DNA from: an uncultured Bacilli bacterium
Lineage (GTDB): Bacteria > Bacillota_I > Bacilli_A > RF39 > UBA660
Assembly: GCA_934090735.1 (NCBI GenBank)
Contig: CAKOJR010000001.1
Span: forward strand, 4,682-68,681
DNA: 64,000 bases
Direction of reading: 5' to 3'
Shown: piece after piece, positions 2,371 through 50,011 of the stretch
Numbering within the stretch: position 1 is the first letter of the stretch
Layout of the letters: each line of letters opens with the position of its first letter
Notes under the pieces: model-generated
Database searches by the model: none
Told to the model about the DNA's origin: nothing
The model's input: only the letters and a program-made list of their open reading frames with translations
Made by a program: the position numbers and the translations under genes

Positions 2371-2600
2371 CATAAGCAGTTGATGAAGACGTTGATATGA
2401 AAGGTATTTAGAGAGCTTACGTTGTGGTGAAAGTAAGTATACTGGAAGTATTAAGGATCACTTCGGATGTTACTATAGGATAAGTATAGTACGGTATCTA
2501 CGTTATAGATAATGAGTGTATGAAATAAGTTCATAAATTAAGGTGGTAACACGGGTTTGACTCGTCCTTAGATTATGGGCTTTTTTATTTTAGGAAGGGA
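2371..2600 (+). promoter_or_regulatory. T-box riboswitch leader (Ile specifier) of ileS
   Basis: Conserved T-box sequence AATTAAGGTGGTAACACGG (about 2536-2556), followed by TCGTCCTT and a GC hairpin plus T-run terminator. AUC-containing loop (aggATCac) is a plausible Ile specifier. Confidence 0.75.
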
Positions 2601-2607
2601 GATTTTT

Positions 2608-5328
2608 ATGGATTATAAGGAAACACTTTTGATGCCTAAGACTGAGTTTCAGATGAAGGGCAATTTACCGGAGAATGAGAAGGTACAACGTGCTAAGTGG
2701 GAAGAAATGGACTTATATAATAAGTTAAGAGAGAAGAATAAGGGAAGGGAGCCTTTTGTGTTACATGATGGGCCTCCTTATGCGAATGGTTCTATTCATA
2801 TTGGTCATGCGATGAATAAGATTTTAAAGGATTTTGTTAATCGTTATGCTGCGATGAGTGGTAGGGATATGATTTATATTCCTGGATGGGATACTCATGG
2901 TCTTCCAATAGAGCAAGCAGTTACTAATAGTGGTGTTGATCGTAAGAGTATGGATAAGGCTGAATTTAGAGCTATTTGTGAAGAGTATGCTAAGAAGCAG
3001 ATTGCTATGCAGATGGAAGGTTTTAAGGCTTTAAATGTTATTGCTGATTGGGATAATTATTATGCTACGTTCCAACATGAGTTAGAGGCTAGACAAATTG
3101 AAGTATTTGCTGAGATGGCTCGTAAGGGGTTAATCTTTAAGGGAATGAAACCTGTATACTGGTCACCATCTAGTGAGAGTGCTTTAGCTGAAGCTGAAAT
3201 TGAGTATCATGATAGAAAGGATCCTTCTATATTTGTTGCTTTTGAAGTAGAGGAAGGTAATAGTGTTGTTGATAAGGGAGATTATTTAGTTATTTGGACT
3301 ACTACTCCTTGGACACTTCCTGGTAATACTGCTATATGTGTTGGACCTAATTTAGAGTATTCTAGAGTACTTGTTAATGGTAAGAAGTATGTTGTTGCGG
3401 CTGACCTTCTTGATTCACTTAAGGGTGAGTTTGGATGGGAAAATGTAGAAGTTATTAACAATTTTTATGGTACTGATTTAGAGTATGTTAAGTATAAACA
3501 TCCATTTATGGATAGAATTAGTCCAGTTGTGTTAGGTGATCACGTAACACTTGATGCAGGTTCTGGTCTTGTTCATACAGCACCTAGTTATGGTGAAGAT
3601 GACTTTAATGTTGGTAAGAAGTATAATCTAGAGATGGTGTTTGGTGTTGATGATAATGGATGCTTAAATGCTGAGTCTGGTGAAAGATTTAAGGGATTAT
3701 TCTTTGAGGATGCTAATAAAGAGGTCGTTAAGTATTTAGATGAGTTAGGTGTATTATTAAAGCTTAAGTTTATTACACACTCTTATCCACATGATTGGCG
3801 TACTAAGAAACCTATTATATTTAGAGCAACTGCTCAGTGGTTCTGTAGTATTGATAAGATTAAAGATGATATCTTAAATGAGATTGATAATAATATTAAC
3901 TGGCTTCCTGAGTGGGGTAAAGTTAGACTTCATAATATGATTGAAGGAAGAGGAGACTGGTGTATTTCTCGTCAAAGAGTTTGGGGAGTACCACTACCTA
4001 TTTTCTATAATGAAGATGGTTCTGCTATTTTAGATTATGATGTTATGATGCATGTTGCAGAGTTATTTAGAGAGCATGGTTCTAATTATTGGTTTATGAA
4101 GGATGCTAAGGATTTACTTCCTGAAGGTTATACTAATCCAGCTAGTCCAAATGGTAAGTTTACTAAAGAGATGGATATCATGGATGTATGGTTTGATTCA
4201 GGCTCTACTCATACTGGTGTATTATTAGGCAGAAATTTACCATATCCAGCTGATGTTTATTTAGAGGGTTGTGATCAATATCGTGGATGGTTTAATTCAT
4301 CATTAATTACTGGTGTAGCAGTTCATGGTAAGAGTCCTTATAAGACTTGTATAAGTCATGGATTTACTTTAGATGCTAAGGGTAATAAGATGAGTAAGAG
4401 TCTTGGTAATGGTATTGATCCACTTAAAGAGATTAGTATTAGAGGTGCTGATGTATTACGTTTATGGGTAGCTTCTACTGATTATACTGAGGATGTAAGA
4501 ATTGGTGATGAGATTCTTAAACAAGTTCAAGAGAGTTATCGTAAGATTAGAAATACTGCTAAGTTTATTTTAGGTAATTTAAATGATTTTGATCCTAATA
4601 AAGATGTGGTTAGTTTTGATGAGATGAAAGAGTATGATAAGTACATGATGAGTGAACTTAATAAGTATGTTAAGAATGTTAGAGGTGCTTATGATAGATA
4701 TTCTTATCAAGAGGTTTATAAGTATACTAATAATTTTATAAGTTTCACTTTATCTAATTTCTATTTAGATTTTACTAAGGATATTTTGTATATTGAGAAG
4801 AAGGATTCTTTAGTAAGAAGAAGTGTACAGACTGTGTTATATAATATTATTACTAAGTTAGATGTTCTTCTTGCACCAATCTTACCTTATACTACTGAAG
4901 AGATTTATCGTTATATTCCTGGAGAAAAGAAAGAAAGTGTTCATTTATTAGATATGCCTGAAGTTATGGATGTAAAAGTAGATGATGAGTTATGGAGTAA
5001 TTTCTTTAAGGTTAAGGATGATGTTTATAAGGCATTAGAGACTGCTCGTAATGAGAAAGTTATTGGTTCTGGATTAGAAGCTAATGTATACTTGAATTTA
5101 CCTGATACATTTAATAATGTTAAAGAAGTTTTAGGTGATGTTATTCATCAGTTATTAATTGTTTCTAAAGTAGTATTTACTAGTGAAGAATTACCTAAGT
5201 ATGATAATGTATCTGTTAAGATTGAAAGAAGCATTGGTGAGAAGTGTAATAGATGCTGGAATTATGTTGATGAATTAGAGGACGGCATTTGTCATAGATG
5301 CGCTAGTATATTAAATGATAATGAGTAA
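2608..5328 (+). CDS. ileS: Isoleucine--tRNA ligase
   Basis: ATG 2608 after GGAAGGGA SD. HIGH-region PPYANGSIHIGH, KMSKS motif (KMSKSLGN), C-terminal CxxC...CxxC zinc finger; 906 aa. Confidence 0.95.
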   Translation: MDYKETLLMPKTEFQMKGNLPENEKVQRAKWEEMDLYNKLREKNKGREPFVLHDGPPYANGSIHIGHAMNKILKDFVNRYAAMSGRDMIYIPGWDTHGLPIEQAVTNSGVDRKSMDKAEFRAICEEYAKKQIAMQMEGFKALNVIADWDNYYATFQHELEARQIEVFAEMARKGLIFKGMKPVYWSPSSESALAEAEIEYHDRKDPSIFVAFEVEEGNSVVDKGDYLVIWTTTPWTLPGNTAICVGPNLEYSRVLVNGKKYVVAADLLDSLKGEFGWENVEVINNFYGTDLEYVKYKHPFMDRISPVVLGDHVTLDAGSGLVHTAPSYGEDDFNVGKKYNLEMVFGVDDNGCLNAESGERFKGLFFEDANKEVVKYLDELGVLLKLKFITHSYPHDWRTKKPIIFRATAQWFCSIDKIKDDILNEIDNNINWLPEWGKVRLHNMIEGRGDWCISRQRVWGVPLPIFYNEDGSAILDYDVMMHVAELFREHGSNYWFMKDAKDLLPEGYTNPASPNGKFTKEMDIMDVWFDSGSTHTGVLLGRNLPYPADVYLEGCDQYRGWFNSSLITGVAVHGKSPYKTCISHGFTLDAKGNKMSKSLGNGIDPLKEISIRGADVLRLWVASTDYTEDVRIGDEILKQVQESYRKIRNTAKFILGNLNDFDPNKDVVSFDEMKEYDKYMMSELNKYVKNVRGAYDRYSYQEVYKYTNNFISFTLSNFYLDFTKDILYIEKKDSLVRRSVQTVLYNIITKLDVLLAPILPYTTEEIYRYIPGEKKESVHLLDMPEVMDVKVDDELWSNFFKVKDDVYKALETARNEKVIGSGLEANVYLNLPDTFNNVKEVLGDVIHQLLIVSKVVFTSEELPKYDNVSVKIERSIGEKCNRCWNYVDELEDGICHRCASILNDNE

Positions 5329-28448: not shown

Positions 28449-28524
28449 GCTGAAATAGCTCAATAGGTAGAGCAACGCCCTCGTAACGCGTAGGTTGTAG
28501 GTTCAAGTCCTATTTTCAGCACCA
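28449..28524 (+). tRNA. tRNA-Thr (anticodon CGU) with encoded CCA
   Basis: Cloverleaf: acceptor GCTGAAA/TTTCAGC, D-arm GCTC..GAGC, anticodon loop CTCGTAA (CGT), T-arm GTAGG-TTCAAGT-CCTAT, 3' ACCA. Confidence 0.85.
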
Positions 28525-44990: not shown

Positions 44991-45500
44991 ATGACTGATA
45001 GTGGTAAAAGTTTATTACTTGTAATAGACTTACAAAAGAGTTTTATAAATGTTAATACTTCTTTAATTCCTTTAAAGGTTGAGGGGTTAATAAGAAATAA
45101 TAATTTTGATTATGTGGCATTTACTAAGTTTGTGAATTTTGATACTTGTAATTTTAATACTATGTTAAATTACAGGGGATGTATGAGTGAAGAAGAAAGA
45201 AATATAGTGATAGATACCGGCGATAATAAAATATTTTGTAAAAGTATTTATTCTGCTTTAAATGATGAACTTGTTAATTATATAAATGATAACAATATAG
45301 ATATAATATATTTGTGCGGTATTGATACTGATGCATGTGTGTTAAAGACAGCAATTGATTTATTTGAAAATAATTATAATTTTAGAGTTATTGAAAATTG
45401 CTCTATGAGTCACTCTGGTAAAGAGTTTCATGAGTTTGCGGTTAAAATGTTAAAGAAATTAGTTGGAGAGCAAAATATAATTTCTTTGGAGTGTGATTAA
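44991..45500 (+). CDS. Isochorismatase-family cysteine hydrolase
   Basis: LLLVIDLQKSF and YLCGIDTDACV catalytic-Cys region. Confidence 0.65.
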   Translation: MTDSGKSLLLVIDLQKSFINVNTSLIPLKVEGLIRNNNFDYVAFTKFVNFDTCNFNTMLNYRGCMSEEERNIVIDTGDNKIFCKSIYSALNDELVNYINDNNIDIIYLCGIDTDACVLKTAIDLFENNYNFRVIENCSMSHSGKEFHEFAVKMLKKLVGEQNIISLECD

Positions 45501-45670
45501 GAATGAAAGTGCCTTTAAGATTTCAAATTACTGAGTTTGATTGTGATACAGTGTCTCTTTTAAATGCTTTAAGTTATTTATATGAAAGAGAGGAAATACC
45601 AGCATTACTTGTTAAACAAATTCATTAATATATGCCAGATTGTATTAATTAGTAGAAGAGTTAGAGATAA

Positions 45671-46384
45671 ATGAGAGTAGTCGTAGTTGGGTCTGGAAGT
45701 ATGTGGACTCGTTATAATAGTGCTTGTTATATGGTAGATGATAATATAATGGTAGATTTTCCGAATGGGGCTTGTAAATATTTATATAGAAATGGTGTTG
45801 ATATTAAGAAAATTAATCATGTTTTAATCACACACTTTCATGGTGATCATTATTTTGATATACCGTTTTATGTATTAAAAAAGTCAAAAAGTGGTGATAC
45901 AAATTCGGTTATTTATTGTTCTAAAGATGGAAAATCTAAAATTAAAAAAATTGGACATTTAGCTTTTCCGAATTCTTTTGAGGAAGCTGTTAATGATAGT
46001 GAGTTAAAATTTCGCTGTAAAGATAGTTTTGAAATAAATGAATATTTAATTAGTAGAGTTTTAGTTGATCATGGAAGAATGAAACCTGCATATGGATATA
46101 TTTTTAATGATGGAGATAAAATAGTTGGTTTTACAGGAGATACTTCATTATGCGATAATGTTGAGTTAATGGCTAATAAATGTTCTTATTTATTTTGTGA
46201 TTGTATGAGATGTGAAGGAAATAGTAAGCATATGGGAATAGATAATTTGGAATATCTTTCTAAAACTTATATAACCTGTACTTTTGTGGTTAGTCATTTA
46301 GATGATGAAACAAGAGATGCGTTAATTAAACTTAATTTAGAAAATGTTATAGTTCCTGAAGATTATCAAATATTTAATATATAA
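45671..46384 (+). CDS. MBL-fold metallo-hydrolase
   Basis: HVLITHFHGDHY (HxHxDH) motif. Confidence 0.65.
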   Translation: MRVVVVGSGSMWTRYNSACYMVDDNIMVDFPNGACKYLYRNGVDIKKINHVLITHFHGDHYFDIPFYVLKKSKSGDTNSVIYCSKDGKSKIKKIGHLAFPNSFEEAVNDSELKFRCKDSFEINEYLISRVLVDHGRMKPAYGYIFNDGDKIVGFTGDTSLCDNVELMANKCSYLFCDCMRCEGNSKHMGIDNLEYLSKTYITCTFVVSHLDDETRDALIKLNLENVIVPEDYQIFNI

Positions 46385-46393
46385 GGAAATATT

Positions 46394-47259
46394 ATGAGTG
46401 ATAAAGTAAAAGGTATTATATTTTTATTTTTATCTGCTTTTTTATATGGTTTGAATGTACCAATTTCTAAGTATTATTTAAATGATTTATCATCTAATGA
46501 GTTACTTTTTTTTATATTTTGGTGCAAGTATTGGTATGGCTTTGATTATTTTATTTAATAAAAATAGAAAATCATCTTTTATACTAGATAAAAAAATGAA
46601 GTATCAAGTTTTTGGAGTGGTACTTTGCGATATGTCTGCTTCTTTGTTTATTGTTGAATCTTTAAAGTATCTTAGTGCAAGTGTGGTTTCTTTATTAAGT
46701 GTTTTAGAGATAGGAGCAACTATTTTAATTTCAGTAGTTTTATTTAAAAAGAAAATTAGTAAAAAATTATTATTGTCTTTAATATCAGTTACTATTGGCG
46801 GAATGTTGCTTTCTGTTGATGGGTTATTTAATGATAAGTTATCATTAATGGTATTGCTTGTTGTGGTAGCTACAATTTTGTGGGGTACTGAAAATAATTT
46901 AACTGCAAGTGTTAGTGATAAAAATTCTCTAGCATTAGTTTTTTATAAATGTCTTGGAGTAGCTATTTTTAATTTAATTTTTATAATAGATAGTAATATT
47001 TTGTCTTTAGTTTTTAATAATTTGTATTTATTATTAATTGGCTTTTTTACATATGGTCTAAGTATTTTGTTTTTTGCTTACGGAACAAAGTTTATTGGTG
47101 CTGGAAGAACTGCAATTATTTTTTTCATTGAGTCCTATTTTTAGTATGATAATGAGTATTATTGTTTTTAAAAGTGAAGTTAATTTATTATTTATTAATA
47201 GTTTAATTTTTATGATTATAGGTATTTATTTAACAGCTAGCGATAAAAACGATGATTAA
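46394..47259 (+). pseudogene. EamA/DMT-family transporter gene disrupted by two +1T homopolymer frameshifts
   Basis: N-terminal MSDKVKGIIFLFLSAFLYGLNVPISKYY in frame 2 stops at 46556. The gene continues in frame 0 after a T8 run (46506-46513), then shifts again after a T7 run (47119-47125) into the frame encoding ...SPIFSMIMSIIVF...IGIYL. Removing one T at each run restores a single about 287-aa EamA ORF. Confidence 0.65.
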
Positions 47260-47302
47260 AAATTACAGATTTTAAAGGTCTGTAAGCCCGGTAAATAATG
47301 GG

Positions 47303-47331
47303 ATTGCATCACTTAAAACTTTATGTTAATA
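47303..47331 (+). promoter_or_regulatory. Promoter of toxin mRNA copy 1 (TTGCAT-17-TAATAT)
   Basis: -35 TTGCAT 47303-47308, 17-nt spacer, -10 TAATAT 47326-47331. Hexamers and spacing are conserved in copy 2 although the flanks diverge. Confidence 0.6.
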
Positions 47332-47393
47332 TACCTCTTTGAAGAGTACTATGTTAGGCTTCTCCTTTCTATAAAAAGAAGGGAGTGATGTAT

Positions 47394-47483
47394 ATGAAAA
47401 AATTAAAGTCTGTTTTAGATAATTTAATTATCATAATCGTCCTTTTAATTATTTTAAAGGTAATTGTTATTATTTTTAGATAA
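47394..47483 (+). CDS. 29-aa hydrophobic peptide MKKLKSVLDNLIIIIVLLIILKVIVIIFR, putative type I toxin (copy 1)
   Basis: AAGGGAG SD 9 nt upstream; single TM-like peptide. 5' UTR gaagagtactatgttaggcttctcc is complementary to 3' UTR ggagaagcctaac...gttagtgctcttcc (47537-47570). Confidence 0.6.
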   Translation: MKKLKSVLDNLIIIIVLLIILKVIVIIFR

Positions 47484-47484
47484 A

Positions 47485-47572
47485 ATAAAAGAAGCTACTA
47501 GCATTACCTGTTAAGTAGCTTCAAAAGTCAATACTGGAGAAGCCTAACTTTCAGGGGTTAGTGCTCTTCCTT
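47485..47572 (-). ncRNA. Putative cis-antisense antitoxin sRNA (copy 1), overlapping toxin 3' UTR
   Basis: Minus-strand promoter TTGAAT (rc of 47603-47608), 18-nt spacer, TATAAT (rc of 47579-47584). Minus-strand terminator hairpin gaagctact...agtagcttc (47491-47519) followed by T-run (rc of 47482-47490). Confidence 0.5.
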
Positions 47573-47669
47573 AAATTAATTATACTACAAATTGCTTATA
47601 TTATTCAAGTGCTTTTTTATATGAAAATTACAGATTTTAAAAGTCTGCAAACCAGCATAAATAAAGGGC

Positions 47670-47698
47670 TTGCATGAGTTTTAAGTTTGCGATAATAT
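47670..47698 (+). promoter_or_regulatory. Promoter of toxin mRNA copy 2 (TTGCAT-17-TAATAT)
   Basis: -35 47670-47675, -10 47693-47698. Confidence 0.6.
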
Positions 47699-47760
47699 AC
47701 TTACTTGAAGAGTACTATGTTAGGCTTCTCCTTTCTATAAAAAGAGGGGGAGTGATGTAT

Positions 47761-47850
47761 ATGAAAAAATTAAAGTCTATTTTAGATAATTTAATTATCA
47801 TAATCGTCCTTTTAATTATTTTAAAGGTAATTGTTATTATTTTTAGATAA
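47761..47850 (+). CDS. 29-aa hydrophobic peptide MKKLKSILDNLIIIIVLLIILKVIVIIFR, putative type I toxin (copy 2)
   Basis: Identical to copy 1 except V7I; same SD and UTR complementarity. Confidence 0.6.
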   Translation: MKKLKSILDNLIIIIVLLIILKVIVIIFR

Positions 47851-47851
47851 A

Positions 47852-47938
47852 TAAAAGAAGCTACTAGCATTACCTGTTAAGTAGCTTCAAAACATATACG
47901 TGGAGAAGCCTAACTTTCAGGGGTTAGTGCTCTTCCCT
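47852..47938 (-). ncRNA. Putative cis-antisense antitoxin sRNA (copy 2)
   Basis: Minus-strand TTGTAT-18-TATAAT promoter (rc around 47945-47974) and terminator hairpin plus T-run mirrored from copy 1. Confidence 0.45.
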
Positions 47939-47983
47939 AAATTAATTATACAACATTAAAGCTAATTTATACAAGTTTTTTTC

Positions 47984-48012
47984 TTGAAATAAGTATTTTC
48001 ATTTGATATACT
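47984..48012 (+). promoter_or_regulatory. Promoter (TTGAAA-17-TATACT) for tyrS-operon T-box leader
   Basis: -35 47984-47989, -10 48007-48012. Confidence 0.5.
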
Positions 48013-48017
48013 ATCTT

Positions 48018-48150
48018 TGTTAGTGATGAAGAGATTTACGACCTTGGAGCTAAAACGTGAAAGTCGCGTTAAGATTAGAGAGCATGTAATCATGAATTAA
48101 GGTGGTACCGCGGATTTTATTCGTCCTTTAGTTTATGATTTTTTTTGTGG
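48018..48150 (+). promoter_or_regulatory. T-box riboswitch leader (Tyr specifier UAC)
   Basis: gatTTACgacc specifier region, AGAGAG box, T-box AATTAAGGTGGTACCGCGG (48098-48116), TCGTCCTTT, T-run terminator ending about 48148. Confidence 0.75.
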
Positions 48151-48158
48151 AGGAATTT

Positions 48159-48773
48159 ATGATTAAAAGAATAATATTTGATGTTGATAACACCCTTTTA
48201 AATACGTATAAAGATTGCATAAATGCTTATACAGAGTTTTTAAAAGATTATCCTAATATTAAACCTAAGATGTTTTATGATACTATTGGAGAGTTTGAAT
48301 TAAAAGGCATTGGATTTGATAAAGATGAACTTTCTAAATATATTAGTGATAGATTAAAGATTATGTTTAATAAAAATGATTTAAATAAATGTTTAGATAT
48401 TTATGCAGGATATTCAACTTTATTAAATGATGATACTAGTGATGTTCTTGATTATTTAAGTAACAAGTATACTTTAGTAGTGCTTACTAATTGGTATACT
48501 GAAGCACAAAAAGGAAGATTACGATACCACGGCTTAGATAAATATTTTAAGAATATATATGGATGTGAATATGGTATGAAGCCAAATAAAGATTTTTTTG
48601 ATTTAGCAAAAGAAGATGATAATTATGATGAATGTGTAATGGTTGGAGATAGTTTATCTAGTGATATTAATCCAGCTAAAGCACTTGGAATGAAAACTAT
48701 TTATATAAGTAAAGATAATGAGAATACTGATAGTACAATAAATGATATAAAAAAATTAAAAGATATATTATAG
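48159..48773 (+). CDS. HAD-superfamily hydrolase
   Basis: IIFDVDNTLL (DxDxT) motif I, later K and GDSxxD motifs; GGAGGA SD. Sits between the T-box and tyrS. Confidence 0.7.
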   Translation: MIKRIIFDVDNTLLNTYKDCINAYTEFLKDYPNIKPKMFYDTIGEFELKGIGFDKDELSKYISDRLKIMFNKNDLNKCLDIYAGYSTLLNDDTSDVLDYLSNKYTLVVLTNWYTEAQKGRLRYHGLDKYFKNIYGCEYGMKPNKDFFDLAKEDDNYDECVMVGDSLSSDINPAKALGMKTIYISKDNENTDSTINDIKKLKDIL

Positions 48774-48784
48774 GAGGAGATATT

Positions 48785-50011
48785 ATGAATTTATTTGAAG
48801 ATTTAAAATGGAGAGGACTAGTTAAGGATATTAGTAGTCCAGAAATAGAAAAATTATTAAATGGAGAACCAATTAGTTTTTATTGGGGAACTGATCCAAC
48901 TGCAGATAGTTTGCATTTAGGTCATTATTCATCACTAGTAACAGCTAAAAGACTTGCTAAAGCAGGACATCATCCAATACTACTTATTGGTGGAGCTACT
49001 GGACTTATTGGCGATCCTAGACCAACAGCTGAAAGAGAAATTATTAGCAAAGAGACATTAAACAAAAATTTAGAAGGTATTTCTAAACAGGTTAGTGCTT
49101 TATTTGATGGTAAAGCAGAACTTGTTAACAATTATGATTGGTTTAAGGGTTACGAGTTTTTAGATTTTTTAAGAGATGTTGGTAAGTATATTAATGTTAA
49201 CTATATGTTAGATAAAGATATTATTAGAAGAAGATTAGAAACGGGTATTACTTATGCAGAGTTTTCTTATACATTAATTCAAGGTTACGATTTCTTAAGA
49301 TTATTTGAAGATAAGAATTGTGTACTTCAAGCTGAAGGCTCTGATCAATGGGGAAATATTACTACTGGTATCGATTTAATTAGAAAGATTACTGGTAAGG
49401 AAGCTTATGGTTTTACAATGCCACTTGTTCTTGATAAGACTGGTAAGAAGTTTGGTAAGAGTGAAGGCAATGCTTTATGGCTTGATAAGAATAAGACTTC
49501 TAGTTATGAGTTATATCAGTACTTAGTTAATGTTGATGATTCACTTGTTATTGATTATTTAAAGATATTTACTTTCTTAAGTAAAGAAGAAATAGAAGTG
49601 TATGAAAGAAAGAATAATGAGCATCCAGAAGAAAGAGAAGCACATATTGCTTTAGCTAGAGAAATTATTACAGATATTCATGGTAAGGATGAATATTTGA
49701 AAGCTAAAAAGATTAGTGATTGTTTATTTAAGGGTGATATAACTCTTTTAGGTGAAGATGAATTAGAAGATGCCTTTAAAGGTGCTCCTTCATTTGATAT
49801 TACTTTAAATGAGAAGATAATAGATATATTGGTAAACTCTAAAATATGTTCTAGTAAAAGAGAGGCAAGAGAATTCTTAAGTGCTGGAAGTATAATTGTT
49901 AATGGAGAAAAAATCAGTGATGAAAATGAAATAGTTACTGATGATAAGTTATTATTTAATAAATATTTAATTGTACGTAAAGGTAAGAAGAAATACTATA
50001 TAGGTAAGTAA
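48785..50011 (+). CDS. tyrS: Tyrosine--tRNA ligase
   Basis: HLGHY (HIGH) and KFGKS (KMSKS) motifs, C-terminal S4-like domain; 408 aa. Confidence 0.95.
   Translation: MNLFEDLKWRGLVKDISSPEIEKLLNGEPISFYWGTDPTADSLHLGHYSSLVTAKRLAKAGHHPILLIGGATGLIGDPRPTAEREIISKETLNKNLEGISKQVSALFDGKAELVNNYDWFKGYEFLDFLRDVGKYINVNYMLDKDIIRRRLETGITYAEFSYTLIQGYDFLRLFEDKNCVLQAEGSDQWGNITTGIDLIRKITGKEAYGFTMPLVLDKTGKKFGKSEGNALWLDKNKTSSYELYQYLVNVDDSLVIDYLKIFTFLSKEEIEVYERKNNEHPEEREAHIALAREIITDIHGKDEYLKAKKISDCLFKGDITLLGEDELEDAFKGAPSFDITLNEKIIDILVNSKICSSKREAREFLSAGSIIVNGEKISDENEIVTDDKLLFNKYLIVRKGKKKYYIGK

Follow-up and report, generated by a model that had tools for sequence, protein, structure and literature searches.

Does a short intergenic repeat, present twice in tandem in a 64,000-nucleotide (nt) stretch of DNA from an uncultured Bacilli bacterium, encode a function, and of what kind? 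The stretch, called the window here, comprises positions 4,682 to 68,681 of the forward strand of contig CAKOJR010000001.1 (GenBank assembly GCA_934090735.1). An earlier note had read the repeat as a duplicated type I toxin-antitoxin-like module, each copy with four elements: a plus-strand promoter, a 5' untranslated region (UTR) complementary to part of the 3' UTR, a strong Shine-Dalgarno sequence (SD) followed by an open reading frame (ORF) for a hydrophobic peptide of 29 amino acids (aa), and a convergent minus-strand promoter with a terminator hairpin. All four were present in both copies. The region 47259-47990 consists of two head-to-tail units with a mean column identity of 93% and a copy spacing of 365-367 nt (Table 1), and comparative tests supported the type I reading: the module is multicopy and conserved, its ORF is open, its antisense promoter is conserved and the two ends of its mRNA are predicted to form a helix. 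From sequence comparison and folding models we consider it likely that the 366-nt units are type I toxin-antitoxin modules belonging to an undescribed family and working like bsrG/SR4 of Bacillus subtilis; the presumed toxin is the 29-residue peptide and the presumed antitoxin an antisense RNA of about 88 nt.

Relatives of the unit were collected by scanning DNA for exact words of 19-21 nt, which reach close relatives only. The 19-mer TTGAAGAGTACTATGTTAG, an invariant part of the 5' UTR, was found in nine stretches of three uncultured gut genomes, those of uncultured Tenericutes bacterium UMGS1021 and of an uncultured Bacilli bacterium from Hadza samples, and the metagenome-assembled genome (MAG) S25M. 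An independent 21-mer, GATTTTAAAAGTCTGCAAACC, was taken from a palindrome upstream of the promoter to avoid selecting on paired regions. A metagenome scan with this word returned 29 stretches, 27 of them genuine, and all 27 came from human-gut assemblies; the other two (L014:2129-2149 and L036:254-274, where L numbers designate recovered loci) were chance matches in unrelated contigs of higher GC content (Ga0126343) with no unit nearby. A DNA profile derived from both window units detected 56 units, full or partial, in the recovered loci. Every full unit obtained via the 21-mer also contained a 5' end and an ORF as described below, together with the 3' element and the antisense promoter. Since 22 metagenome units were picked only via the upstream palindrome, the conservation in these units of the 25-mer that begins the mRNA is no artefact of the search. 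Distinct sequences were aligned as 31 full units (alignment A2) and as 32 mRNA regions (A3), to which the counts given below refer.

The units are chromosomal and lie in intergenic DNA between ordinary genes. They were found beside a 572-aa gene at L006, L007 and L010, beside a 190-aa regulator-like gene at L002 and L009, and upstream of a T-box/HAD/tyrS operon both in the window and at L008. Such sharing of genomic sites between different species points to vertical descent rather than transposition. It bears on the possibility that the repeat is a repetitive or mobile intergenic element, similar to miniature inverted-repeat transposable elements (MITE) or repetitive extragenic palindromes (REP), in which the ORF and the promoter hexamers would be incidental. 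The repeat is multicopy and tandem, as well as sharply bounded and marked by a conserved palindrome at its left edge, all of which would suit an element of this kind. It lacks terminal inverted repeats, however, and a unit used as a blastn query gave one 42-nt chance match among plasmids and none among phages; the 25-mer was absent from viral contigs. In addition, conservation follows the ORF frame, the SD and the promoter hexamers rather than the element ends. With the shared positions across species, these results make a mobile or repetitive element highly improbable.

On the minus strand, the -10 box TATAAT of the putative antisense gene was present in 31/31 units, and the -35 box was TTG[TA]AT in all 31 (TTGTAT in 17, TTGAAT in 14); the two are separated by 18 nt in 30/31 units, by a spacer whose sequence is free (entropy 0.63). 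In the mRNA fold the invariant TATAAT is located in an unpaired stretch, and the structure of the mRNA does not therefore account for its conservation. The other end of the antisense gene would be set by a hairpin located 3' of the ORF and flanked by plus-strand A-runs, so that a U-run, UUUUAUUUUAU, follows this hairpin on the minus strand only, which indicates that it terminates the antisense transcript and not the mRNA. The corresponding plus-strand A-run was invariant across units. With ends deduced from this promoter and this terminator, the antisense RNA would be about 86-90 nt in both units, in agreement with the length of about 87 nt proposed initially.

In its predicted fold the antisense RNA has two hairpins, one at the 5' end and the terminator hairpin, joined by a single-stranded linker of 13 nt. 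Its complementarity to the 3' UTR of the presumed toxin mRNA is complete, and the two RNAs would form a perfect duplex of about 86 bp (predicted energy -161 kcal/mol). No significant complementarity was found with the 5' UTR and the ORF: the best interaction was -28.7 kcal/mol, compared with a shuffle mean of -25.9 (standard deviation 4.2), and 24% of shuffles were as good. The antisense 5' hairpin, GGAAGAGCACUAAC-CCCUGAAA-GUUAGGCUUCUCC, has the sequence of the mRNA 5' end with an inserted loop, and consequently the two would compete for the same 3' element of the mRNA.

The presumed toxin mRNA would begin in both copies with the 25-mer GAAGAGTACTATGTTAGGCTTCTCC, which occurs twice in the window, with no occurrence expected by chance. 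Upstream of it, the plus-strand promoter retains an invariant TTG over the 31 units; the -35 box is TTGCA[CT] in 27/31, the -10 region TGnTA[AT]TAT in 26/31 and the spacer 17 nt in 29/31. An extended -10 TG is present in unit 1 (47324-47325), where unit 2 has CG. At the other end, most units finish with a plus-strand hairpin, with a 9-bp stem AAAGUGCUU/AAGCACUUU followed by a U-run. This stem shows compensatory variants among relatives (for example at L037), and it overlaps the spacer and the -35 box of the antisense promoter. A simple terminator scan found none of these hairpins as their loops exceed its 8-nt limit, and hairpins were judged from folds. The right-end hairpin and its U-run are likely the terminator of the toxin mRNA; they probably place the length of this mRNA at about 275-280 nt, and the value of about 235 nt given in the earlier note was not retained.

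The complementarity between the 5' and 3' UTRs that this note had described was recovered in the mRNA folds. The 3' element, GGAGAAGCCTAAC-TTTCAGGG-GTTAGTGCTCTTCC, can form a local hairpin, or its two arms (GGAGAAGCCTAAC...GTTAGTGCTCTTC) can both pair with the mRNA 5' end. In the minimum-free-energy fold of both window units a 24-bp helix closes the molecule, nt 1-11 and nt 13-25 being paired with the arms of the 3' element. For RNAs extending from the start to just past the 3' element, folding energies were -73.5 kcal/mol for unit 1 and -73.9 kcal/mol for unit 2 (z = -7.3 and -6.5, respectively; 0/200 shuffles were as good). The 5'-3' helix persisted when the RNA was extended to 276-280 nt, up to the putative terminator, and it was predicted in 32/32 mRNA variants. 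Entropy over the 31 units was 0.056 in the 5' end and 0.053 in the 3' element, compared with 0.59 in the ORF and 1.1 in the variable 13-nt linker that separates the terminator hairpin from the 3' element.

Base pairing was evaluated on A3 for the 5'-3' helix, the terminator hairpin and a helix between the SD and an internal UCCUU sequence taken together. Standard pairs filled 96.7% of cells, compared with 41-52% when the 3' partners were slid by 1-3 columns. Four pairs were changed on both sides, compared with a shuffle mean of 0.6, and 0/500 shuffles reached four. One fully compensatory pair was found in the 5'-3' helix, in peptide subfamily D, where G6:C is replaced by A:U (GAAGAAC... / ...GTATTC...), and the stem of the terminator hairpin carries compensatory changes. 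Other single changes were mostly compatible with wobble pairing (A5G, C9U, and C to U in the 3' arm).

These folds also predict two states of the ribosome-binding site. The 3' part of the mRNA 5' end contains CUUCUCC, an anti-SD sequence. In 30/32 full-length variants the partner of the SD is the UCCUU region inside the ORF, in a short helix of about 5 bp; for the window mRNAs, the SD has a probability of 0.15-0.21 of being unpaired. When the 3' part is absent, or masked as the antisense RNA would do, the released 5' segment CUUCUCCUUUCU pairs with AGAAGGGAG, which places the SD in a helix of 7-10 bp in 32/32 variants and lowers the probability of its being unpaired to 0.01-0.02. Subfamily C keeps this local SD helix with a different inner sequence (UUUUACA/UGUGAAA).

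A mechanism can be proposed on this basis. The plus-strand mRNA of about 275 nt that starts at 47341 or 47707 would encode the presumed toxin. In the nascent mRNA, CUUCUCCUUUCU would pair with the SD over 7-10 bp and block translation. Once completed, the 3' element would capture the first 25 nt, thereby closing the molecule, burying its 5' end and removing the anti-SD; the SD would then be held by the short UCCUU helix only, in a stable form that is more likely to be translated. The antisense 5' hairpin would compete for the 3' element, binding via complementary loops and via the single-stranded linker, so that the mRNA 5' end would be displaced and the strong SD clamp would form again. Finally, the duplex of about 86 bp might be cut by RNase III.

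The SD (GGGAG, 8 nt before the ATG) and the 29-codon ORF were confirmed in both units. Over all relatives the peptide has 27-29 aa, and positions 10-28 are nearly all I, L, V or F; composition suggests a cationic N-terminus followed by a single membrane helix. Four peptide subfamilies are carried on one RNA scaffold. The ORF is open in 19 distinct 90-nt variants and also in the 27-codon subfamilies, the subfamilies differing in length by a gap of 9 nt that keeps the frame. Codon positions 1, 2 and 3 have 10, 6 and 14 variable sites, replacements are almost all within I, L, V, F, A and T, and neither Pro nor Gly is present in any of the 20 peptide variants. The internal UCCUU is invariant, whereas the codon that precedes CTT is GTC, ATC or TTC according to the subfamily; codon 16 thus always ends in C, whichever amino acid is encoded, and in the window genes such codons are rare (GTC is 2% of Val, ATC 7% of Ile and TTC 10% of Phe codons). 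The maintenance of a rare C-ending codon through amino acid changes points to selection at the RNA level for the internal anti-SD.

The peptide had been thought to lie outside known families, and this was borne out. No subfamily matched Pfam, NCBIfam, PHROGs or PADLOC; Rfam searches of 47262-47990 with E values up to 10 gave no match save one chance microRNA hit; and phmmer found no hit among 1.84 billion representative proteins. A query made of six concatenated peptides found nothing, the candidate list being swamped by low-complexity words, and the plasmid and phage collections yielded nothing to tblastn, whose low-complexity filter may, however, mask the query. The 58-aa read-through ORF of unit 2, used as a protein query, had a sole match, a 43-aa gene call in a Joint Genome Institute (JGI) metagenome (P0001). 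Membership of the peptide in a longer annotated protein, which the earlier note had named as grounds for rejecting its reading, was not found: the start ATG of P0001 lies in the 5' UTR and is out of frame in the window copies. Such a longer protein was rejected, as the upstream sequence in which the 58-aa ORF and P0001 start is not conserved and the same frame does not stay open in unit 1. A 51-aa minus-strand ORF at 47715-47870 was also rejected because unit 1 does not conserve it, only 21 aa being open there.

The two halves of the unit have had different fates among relatives. In five copies the toxin half had been inactivated by independent events, and the antisense promoter and hairpins were intact in all of them. 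At one site, which follows a gene for a 1255-aa membrane protein, the subfamily D unit L025:9677-9978(+) is intact, whereas five other assemblies, from at least two species, have its antisense half only. These five orphan antisense genes (Table 1) are without the toxin promoter and the 5' UTR and without roughly the first 18 codons, and keep TTGTAT-18-TATAAT, the 5' hairpin and the terminator. In genome UMGS1021 alone there are at least four intact units, of types A, B, B' and C, besides two that have decayed and one orphan. That toxin halves decay while antisense halves persist fits better with a dispensable toxin and a protective antitoxin than with a housekeeping subunit.

The orphans also bear on whether an antisense RNA is made at all. 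The 3' element, the hairpins and the hexamers might act purely in cis in the peptide mRNA, or as protein-binding sites; the 3' element has a clear cis role through the 5'-3' helix, and part of the conservation of the antisense -35 box could be explained by its partial overlap with the putative plus-strand terminator's 3' arm. We nevertheless consider this very unlikely. After loss of the peptide gene and its promoter the orphans keep exactly the antisense promoter, hairpin and terminator, the hairpin at 47491-47522 has its invariant U-run on the minus strand only, and a TATAAT that is single-stranded in the mRNA fold is found in 31/31 units at a fixed 18 nt from TTG[TA]AT, across a variable spacer.

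A more serious alternative concerns the peptide, which could be a small non-toxic membrane protein under cis-antisense control, either a regulator or a subunit of a membrane complex. Antisense-controlled small hydrophobic proteins are not always toxins, as illustrated by a candidate without toxicity in the work of Fozo et al. (PMC2887945), ORF length and hydrophobic pattern are conserved here, and computed evidence gives no measure of toxicity. We judge a non-toxic role unlikely, given that a single genome contains several subfamilies and tandem copies, that peptide halves were repeatedly inactivated while antisense halves were kept, including the five orphans, and that the layered occlusion of translation predicted for this mRNA is typical of toxin mRNAs. 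Moreover, a comparison of neighbourhoods found no partner gene consistently adjoining the units.

Several observations weigh against a type I module as proposed here. The plus-strand promoter, earlier described as near-consensus, is present in both copies but matches the consensus at 3/6 and 4/6 positions of its hexamers (7/12 in all), and it was not listed by the consensus scan. The toxin-mRNA terminator is weak in both window copies. The fold of the antisense RNA only modestly beats shuffles (z about -2.1). Both the SD and the AUG are base-paired in all predicted states (SD unpaired with a probability of at most 0.21), which leaves synthesis of the peptide unexplained. A.C mismatches are created by the 5'-end change G18A in five units and by one 3'-arm change in L033b. 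Lastly, variation in the key helices is very low, and covariation is consequently thin, with the single fully compensatory pair in the 5'-3' helix; the case for this predicted helix rests mainly on stability, presence in 32/32 variants and differential conservation.

Tandem repetition within one intergenic region is a recognised hallmark of type I systems (PMC2887945). The present units are intergenic, multicopy and often tandem, in the window and in at least seven other loci (tandem pairs at L001, L006 with L004, L005, L012, L027, L030 and L033), and their ORF is short (less than about 70 aa) and hydrophobic, with one predicted membrane helix. The earlier note had compared their layout with those of txpA/RatA and bsrG/SR4: the 3'-overlapping layout stood, and the closest analogue could be narrowed to bsrG/SR4. 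In the bsrG mRNA, probing by Jahn and Brantl defined helix P1, in which nt 1-35 pair with nt 232-262, followed by the terminator (PMC3834814). With SR4 bound to the bsrG 3' arm, the 5' arm is single-stranded, the SD helix passes from 4 to 8 bp and translation is reduced (PMC3834814); the duplex is cut by RNase III (PMC3834814; PMC5848175). The units share with bsrG/SR4 the layout of a convergent antisense RNA, here a predicted one, that would pair with the 3' UTR of the toxin mRNA, a long 5'-3' helix that closes this mRNA (32/32 units, in silico), and an SD helix predicted to lengthen when the 3' arm is masked, here from about 5 bp to 7-10 bp (32/32). No similarity to bsrG/SR4 was detected in peptide or RNA, the presence of BsrG/SR4 models in each library being unconfirmed. 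BsrG has 38 aa, whereas the peptide here has 29 and carries its charge N-terminally. With a length of about 180 nt, SR4 overlaps the ORF further than the antisense RNA described here, which would be about 88 nt and enter the ORF by at most 4 nt, with its terminator between the ORF and the 3' arm. Finally, bsrG/SR4 is borne by a prophage, while the present units are chromosomal, multicopy and tandem, in uncultured gut bacteria.

Likenesses to other systems were more partial. The txpA/RatA, bsrE/SR5 and yonT/SR6 systems of Bacillus subtilis also have a convergent cis-antisense RNA 3' of a small hydrophobic ORF, and degradation of the duplex by RNase III is their expected outcome (PMC5848175); there was no Rfam antitoxin-RNA match, however, and the peptides are unrelated. 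RatA leaves the SD helix unchanged (PMC3834814), whereas a change is predicted here. As in fst/RNAII (pAD1 par), convergent genes surround a hairpin, the peptide has about 30 residues and the ORF is left uncovered by the antisense RNA (PMC8594479). The motif shared by Fst-group peptides, APXXXGXXX (PMC8309996), does not fit any of the 20 variants, which have no Pro or Gly, and this separates them from Fst, Ldr, Lpt and SprA1. RNAII pairs with the 5' region of the toxin mRNA via direct repeats, whereas the repeats here are inverted, which gives the antisense RNA and the mRNA 5' end the same sense. In hok/Sok and aapA1/IsoA1, as predicted here, the full-length toxin mRNA is locked by a long-distance 5'-3' interaction, and metastable hairpins at the 5' end keep it from being translated while it is transcribed. 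In these systems the antisense RNA acts on the 5' region, and the mRNA is activated by trimming of its 3' end; here, the 3' arm itself would be the antisense target, and loss of this arm is predicted to tighten the SD clamp, not to open it. There was also no Hok/Gef hit in Pfam, the antisense gene is on the 3' side, and the ORF listing contained no mok-like overlapping leader ORF conserved between the window copies. Short ORFs in tandem within one intergenic region, with similarity extending beyond the ORF, are known for zorO/zorP, ibs/sib and ldr/rdl of Escherichia coli, and ZorO/ZorP have about 29 aa, as here (PMC2887945). Their antisense RNAs are divergent or fully overlap the ORF, and their sequences are unrelated.

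By layout and predicted mechanism, then, the units are of the Gram-positive 3'-overlapping type I kind, closest to bsrG/SR4, and on every sequence criterion tested they are distinct from the BsrG, TxpA, Fst/Ldr, SprA1 and Hok families. They would constitute a new family within a known kind, and as an arrangement of genes this family has good support. The T1TAdb paper, which reports 24 families in 218 species, does not name Tenericutes, Mollicutes or Firmicutes, and Fozo et al. (2010) make no mention of Tenericutes or Mollicutes (PMC2887945). Searches of full-text literature found nothing on the peptide or UTR sequences, nor relevant type I systems in RF39 or Mollicutes. The units would thus add a type I family that homology searches cannot recognise, in an uncultured low-GC lineage of the human gut (recorded as Tenericutes or Bacilli) for which we found no report of such systems, and with peptides nearly absent from annotation, a single gene call of 43 aa in billions of proteins. 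They also offer an independent and naturally replicated example, as predicted, of the bsrG/SR4 mechanism, in which a 3'-end antisense RNA would remodel a ribosome-binding site about 150 nt upstream. The mimicry of the 5' end is unusually clean, and simple compensatory mutations could probe it.

The four subfamilies have nearly the same 5' end and 3' element, so that the antisense RNA of any copy or orphan could neutralise any of the mRNAs. This leads to a tentative suggestion, which we hold to be possible but far from assured: the 25-nt 5' end and the 35-nt 3' element may be a shared RNA control cassette around freely diverging peptides, the antitoxin acting mainly as a mimic of the 5' end and all antitoxins forming a pooled network. 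If so, any copy or orphan antisense gene could silence every toxin, in a gut bacterium with a reduced genome. The orphans and the near-identical control elements make cross-neutralisation of paralogues directly testable.

Table 1. Coordinates of the units, their predicted parts, peptide subfamilies, decayed relatives and adjoining genes. Positions are those of the window unless a recovered locus (L number) is given.
Feature	Location	Strand	Details
Unit 1	47259-47623		about 366-nt unit
Unit 2	47624-47990		about 366-nt unit
Left-edge palindrome, unit 1	47263-47285	-	23 nt, TTACAGA-N9-TCTGTAA
Left-edge palindrome, unit 2	47628-47650	-	TTACAGA-N9-TCTGCAA
Putative toxin promoter, unit 1	47304-47332	+	TTGCAT-17-TAATAT; predicted start near 47341
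Putative toxin promoter, unit 2	47670-47698	+	TTGCAT-17-TAATAT; predicted start near 47707
Predicted mRNA 5' end, unit 1	47341-47365	+	25-mer GAAGAGTACTATGTTAGGCTTCTCC (RNA GAAGAGUACUAUGUUAGGCUUCUCC), about 8 nt past the -10
Predicted mRNA 5' end, unit 2	47707-47731	+	same 25-mer as unit 1
Alternative SD hairpin, unit 1	47362-47385	+	CUCCUUUCU/AGAAGGGAG; predicted to sequester the SD without the 3' element
Presumed toxin ORF, unit 1	47394-47483	+	29 codons, MKKLKSVLDNLIIIIVLLIILKVIVIIFR; SD GGGAG at 47381-47385
Presumed toxin ORF, unit 2	47761-47850	+	29 codons, MKKLKSILDNLIIIIVLLIILKVIVIIFR; SD at 47748-47752
Internal anti-SD UCCUU, unit 1	47440-47444		inside ORF
Internal anti-SD UCCUU, unit 2	47807-47811		inside ORF
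Predicted antisense RNA, unit 1	47484-47572	-	about 86-90 nt
Predicted antisense RNA, unit 2	47850-47938	-	about 86-90 nt
Antisense terminator hairpin, unit 1	47491-47522	-	GAAGCTACT...AGTAGCTTC (as RNA, GAAGCUACU...AGUAGCUUC)
Antisense terminator hairpin, unit 2	47857-47888	-	GAAGCTACT...AGTAGCTTC
3' element, unit 1	47536-47570	+	35 nt, GGAGAAGCCUAAC-UUUCAGGG-GUUAGUGCUCUUCC
3' element, unit 2	47902-47936	+	35 nt; predicted to pair with the 5' end
Candidate toxin-mRNA terminator, unit 1	47586-47618	+	hairpin and U6, overlaps antisense promoter
Putative antisense promoter, unit 1	47608-47579	-	TTGAAT-18-TATAAT; 10/12 in consensus scan
Putative antisense promoter, unit 2	47974-47945	-	TTGTAT-18-TATAAT
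Peptide subfamily A			MKKLKSILDNLIIIIVLLIILKVIVIIFR, 29 aa
Peptide subfamily B			MKQLKSILDKLIIILVLLFILKIAFTIFR and MKQFKLILDKIIIILFLLFILKIAFAMFR, 29 aa
Peptide subfamily C			MKQIKEILQLLCILVILLIIFIITIKY, 27 aa
Peptide subfamily D			MKQIKEIISYLIVLIIFLIILVITIKC, 27 aa
Decayed toxin half	L006:7812-8000 + L004:1-82 (= L028:2169-2521)		frameshift, 1-nt deletion
Decayed toxin half	L010:1631-1859		nonsense, stop at codon 3
Decayed toxin half	L039:173-532		C-terminal frameshift, giving 36 aa
Decayed toxin half	L002:1689-1981		5' UTR and start codon deleted
Decayed toxin half	L037:2199-2553		8-nt deletion in toxin -10 region
Orphan antisense gene	L002:6855-6996	-	
Orphan antisense gene	L009:1613-1771	+	
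Orphan antisense gene	L017:556-719	+	
Orphan antisense gene	L019:1496-1658	+	
Orphan antisense gene	L032:7178-7327	-	
HAD-family hydrolase gene	48159-48773		3' of T-box leader
tyrS	48785-50011		after HAD-family hydrolase gene

The palindrome at the left edge was present upstream of the toxin promoter in every unit (L001-L039). Over the unit variants, standard pairs were formed at 290/308 positions as minus-strand RNA, compared with 261/308 as plus-strand RNA, because a plus-strand A.C becomes a minus-strand G.U; on the minus strand, 4-6 U follow directly. This palindrome is probably, although tentatively, a minus-strand backstop terminator for antisense read-through, which would set the end of a longer antisense read-through RNA spanning the entire toxin gene; it could instead be an operator site.

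The gene directly upstream of unit 1, described initially as a frameshifted EamA gene, proved to be so: an EamA-type transporter gene at 46394-47259 (+) is broken over three frames (54, 220 and 61 aa), each of which matches PF00892. It is either a pseudogene or the product of a pair of assembly frameshifts. In UMGS1021 (L008), the genes upstream of the unit differ from the EamA gene of the window. Further upstream, a gap at 45503-45674 (+), between an isochorismatase-family gene (44991-45500) and a gene of the metallo-beta-lactamase fold (45671-46384), contains two short overlapping ORFs (41 and 30 aa) that may be another broken gene.

Downstream of unit 2, a T-box had been assigned to tyrS. 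The T-box itself was found, but it does not precede tyrS alone, as a HAD-family hydrolase gene comes first. This leader (48017-48131, +; promoter at 47984-48012) scored 53.5 bits, compared with a gathering score of 93, and its stem I has 7 nt, compared with 76 in the model; it keeps UAC (within GAGAUUUACGACC) and a normal antiterminator and T-box sequence, and may be a naturally minimal T-box. A role of the units as leader of this T-box was ruled out, since units are held in at least four unrelated genomic contexts. Elsewhere in the window, a full-length T-box leader (97.2 bits) is located at 2371-2572 (+) and a tRNA gene at 28449-28521 (+), and GC skew is strongly positive over all 64 kb (0.19-0.43).

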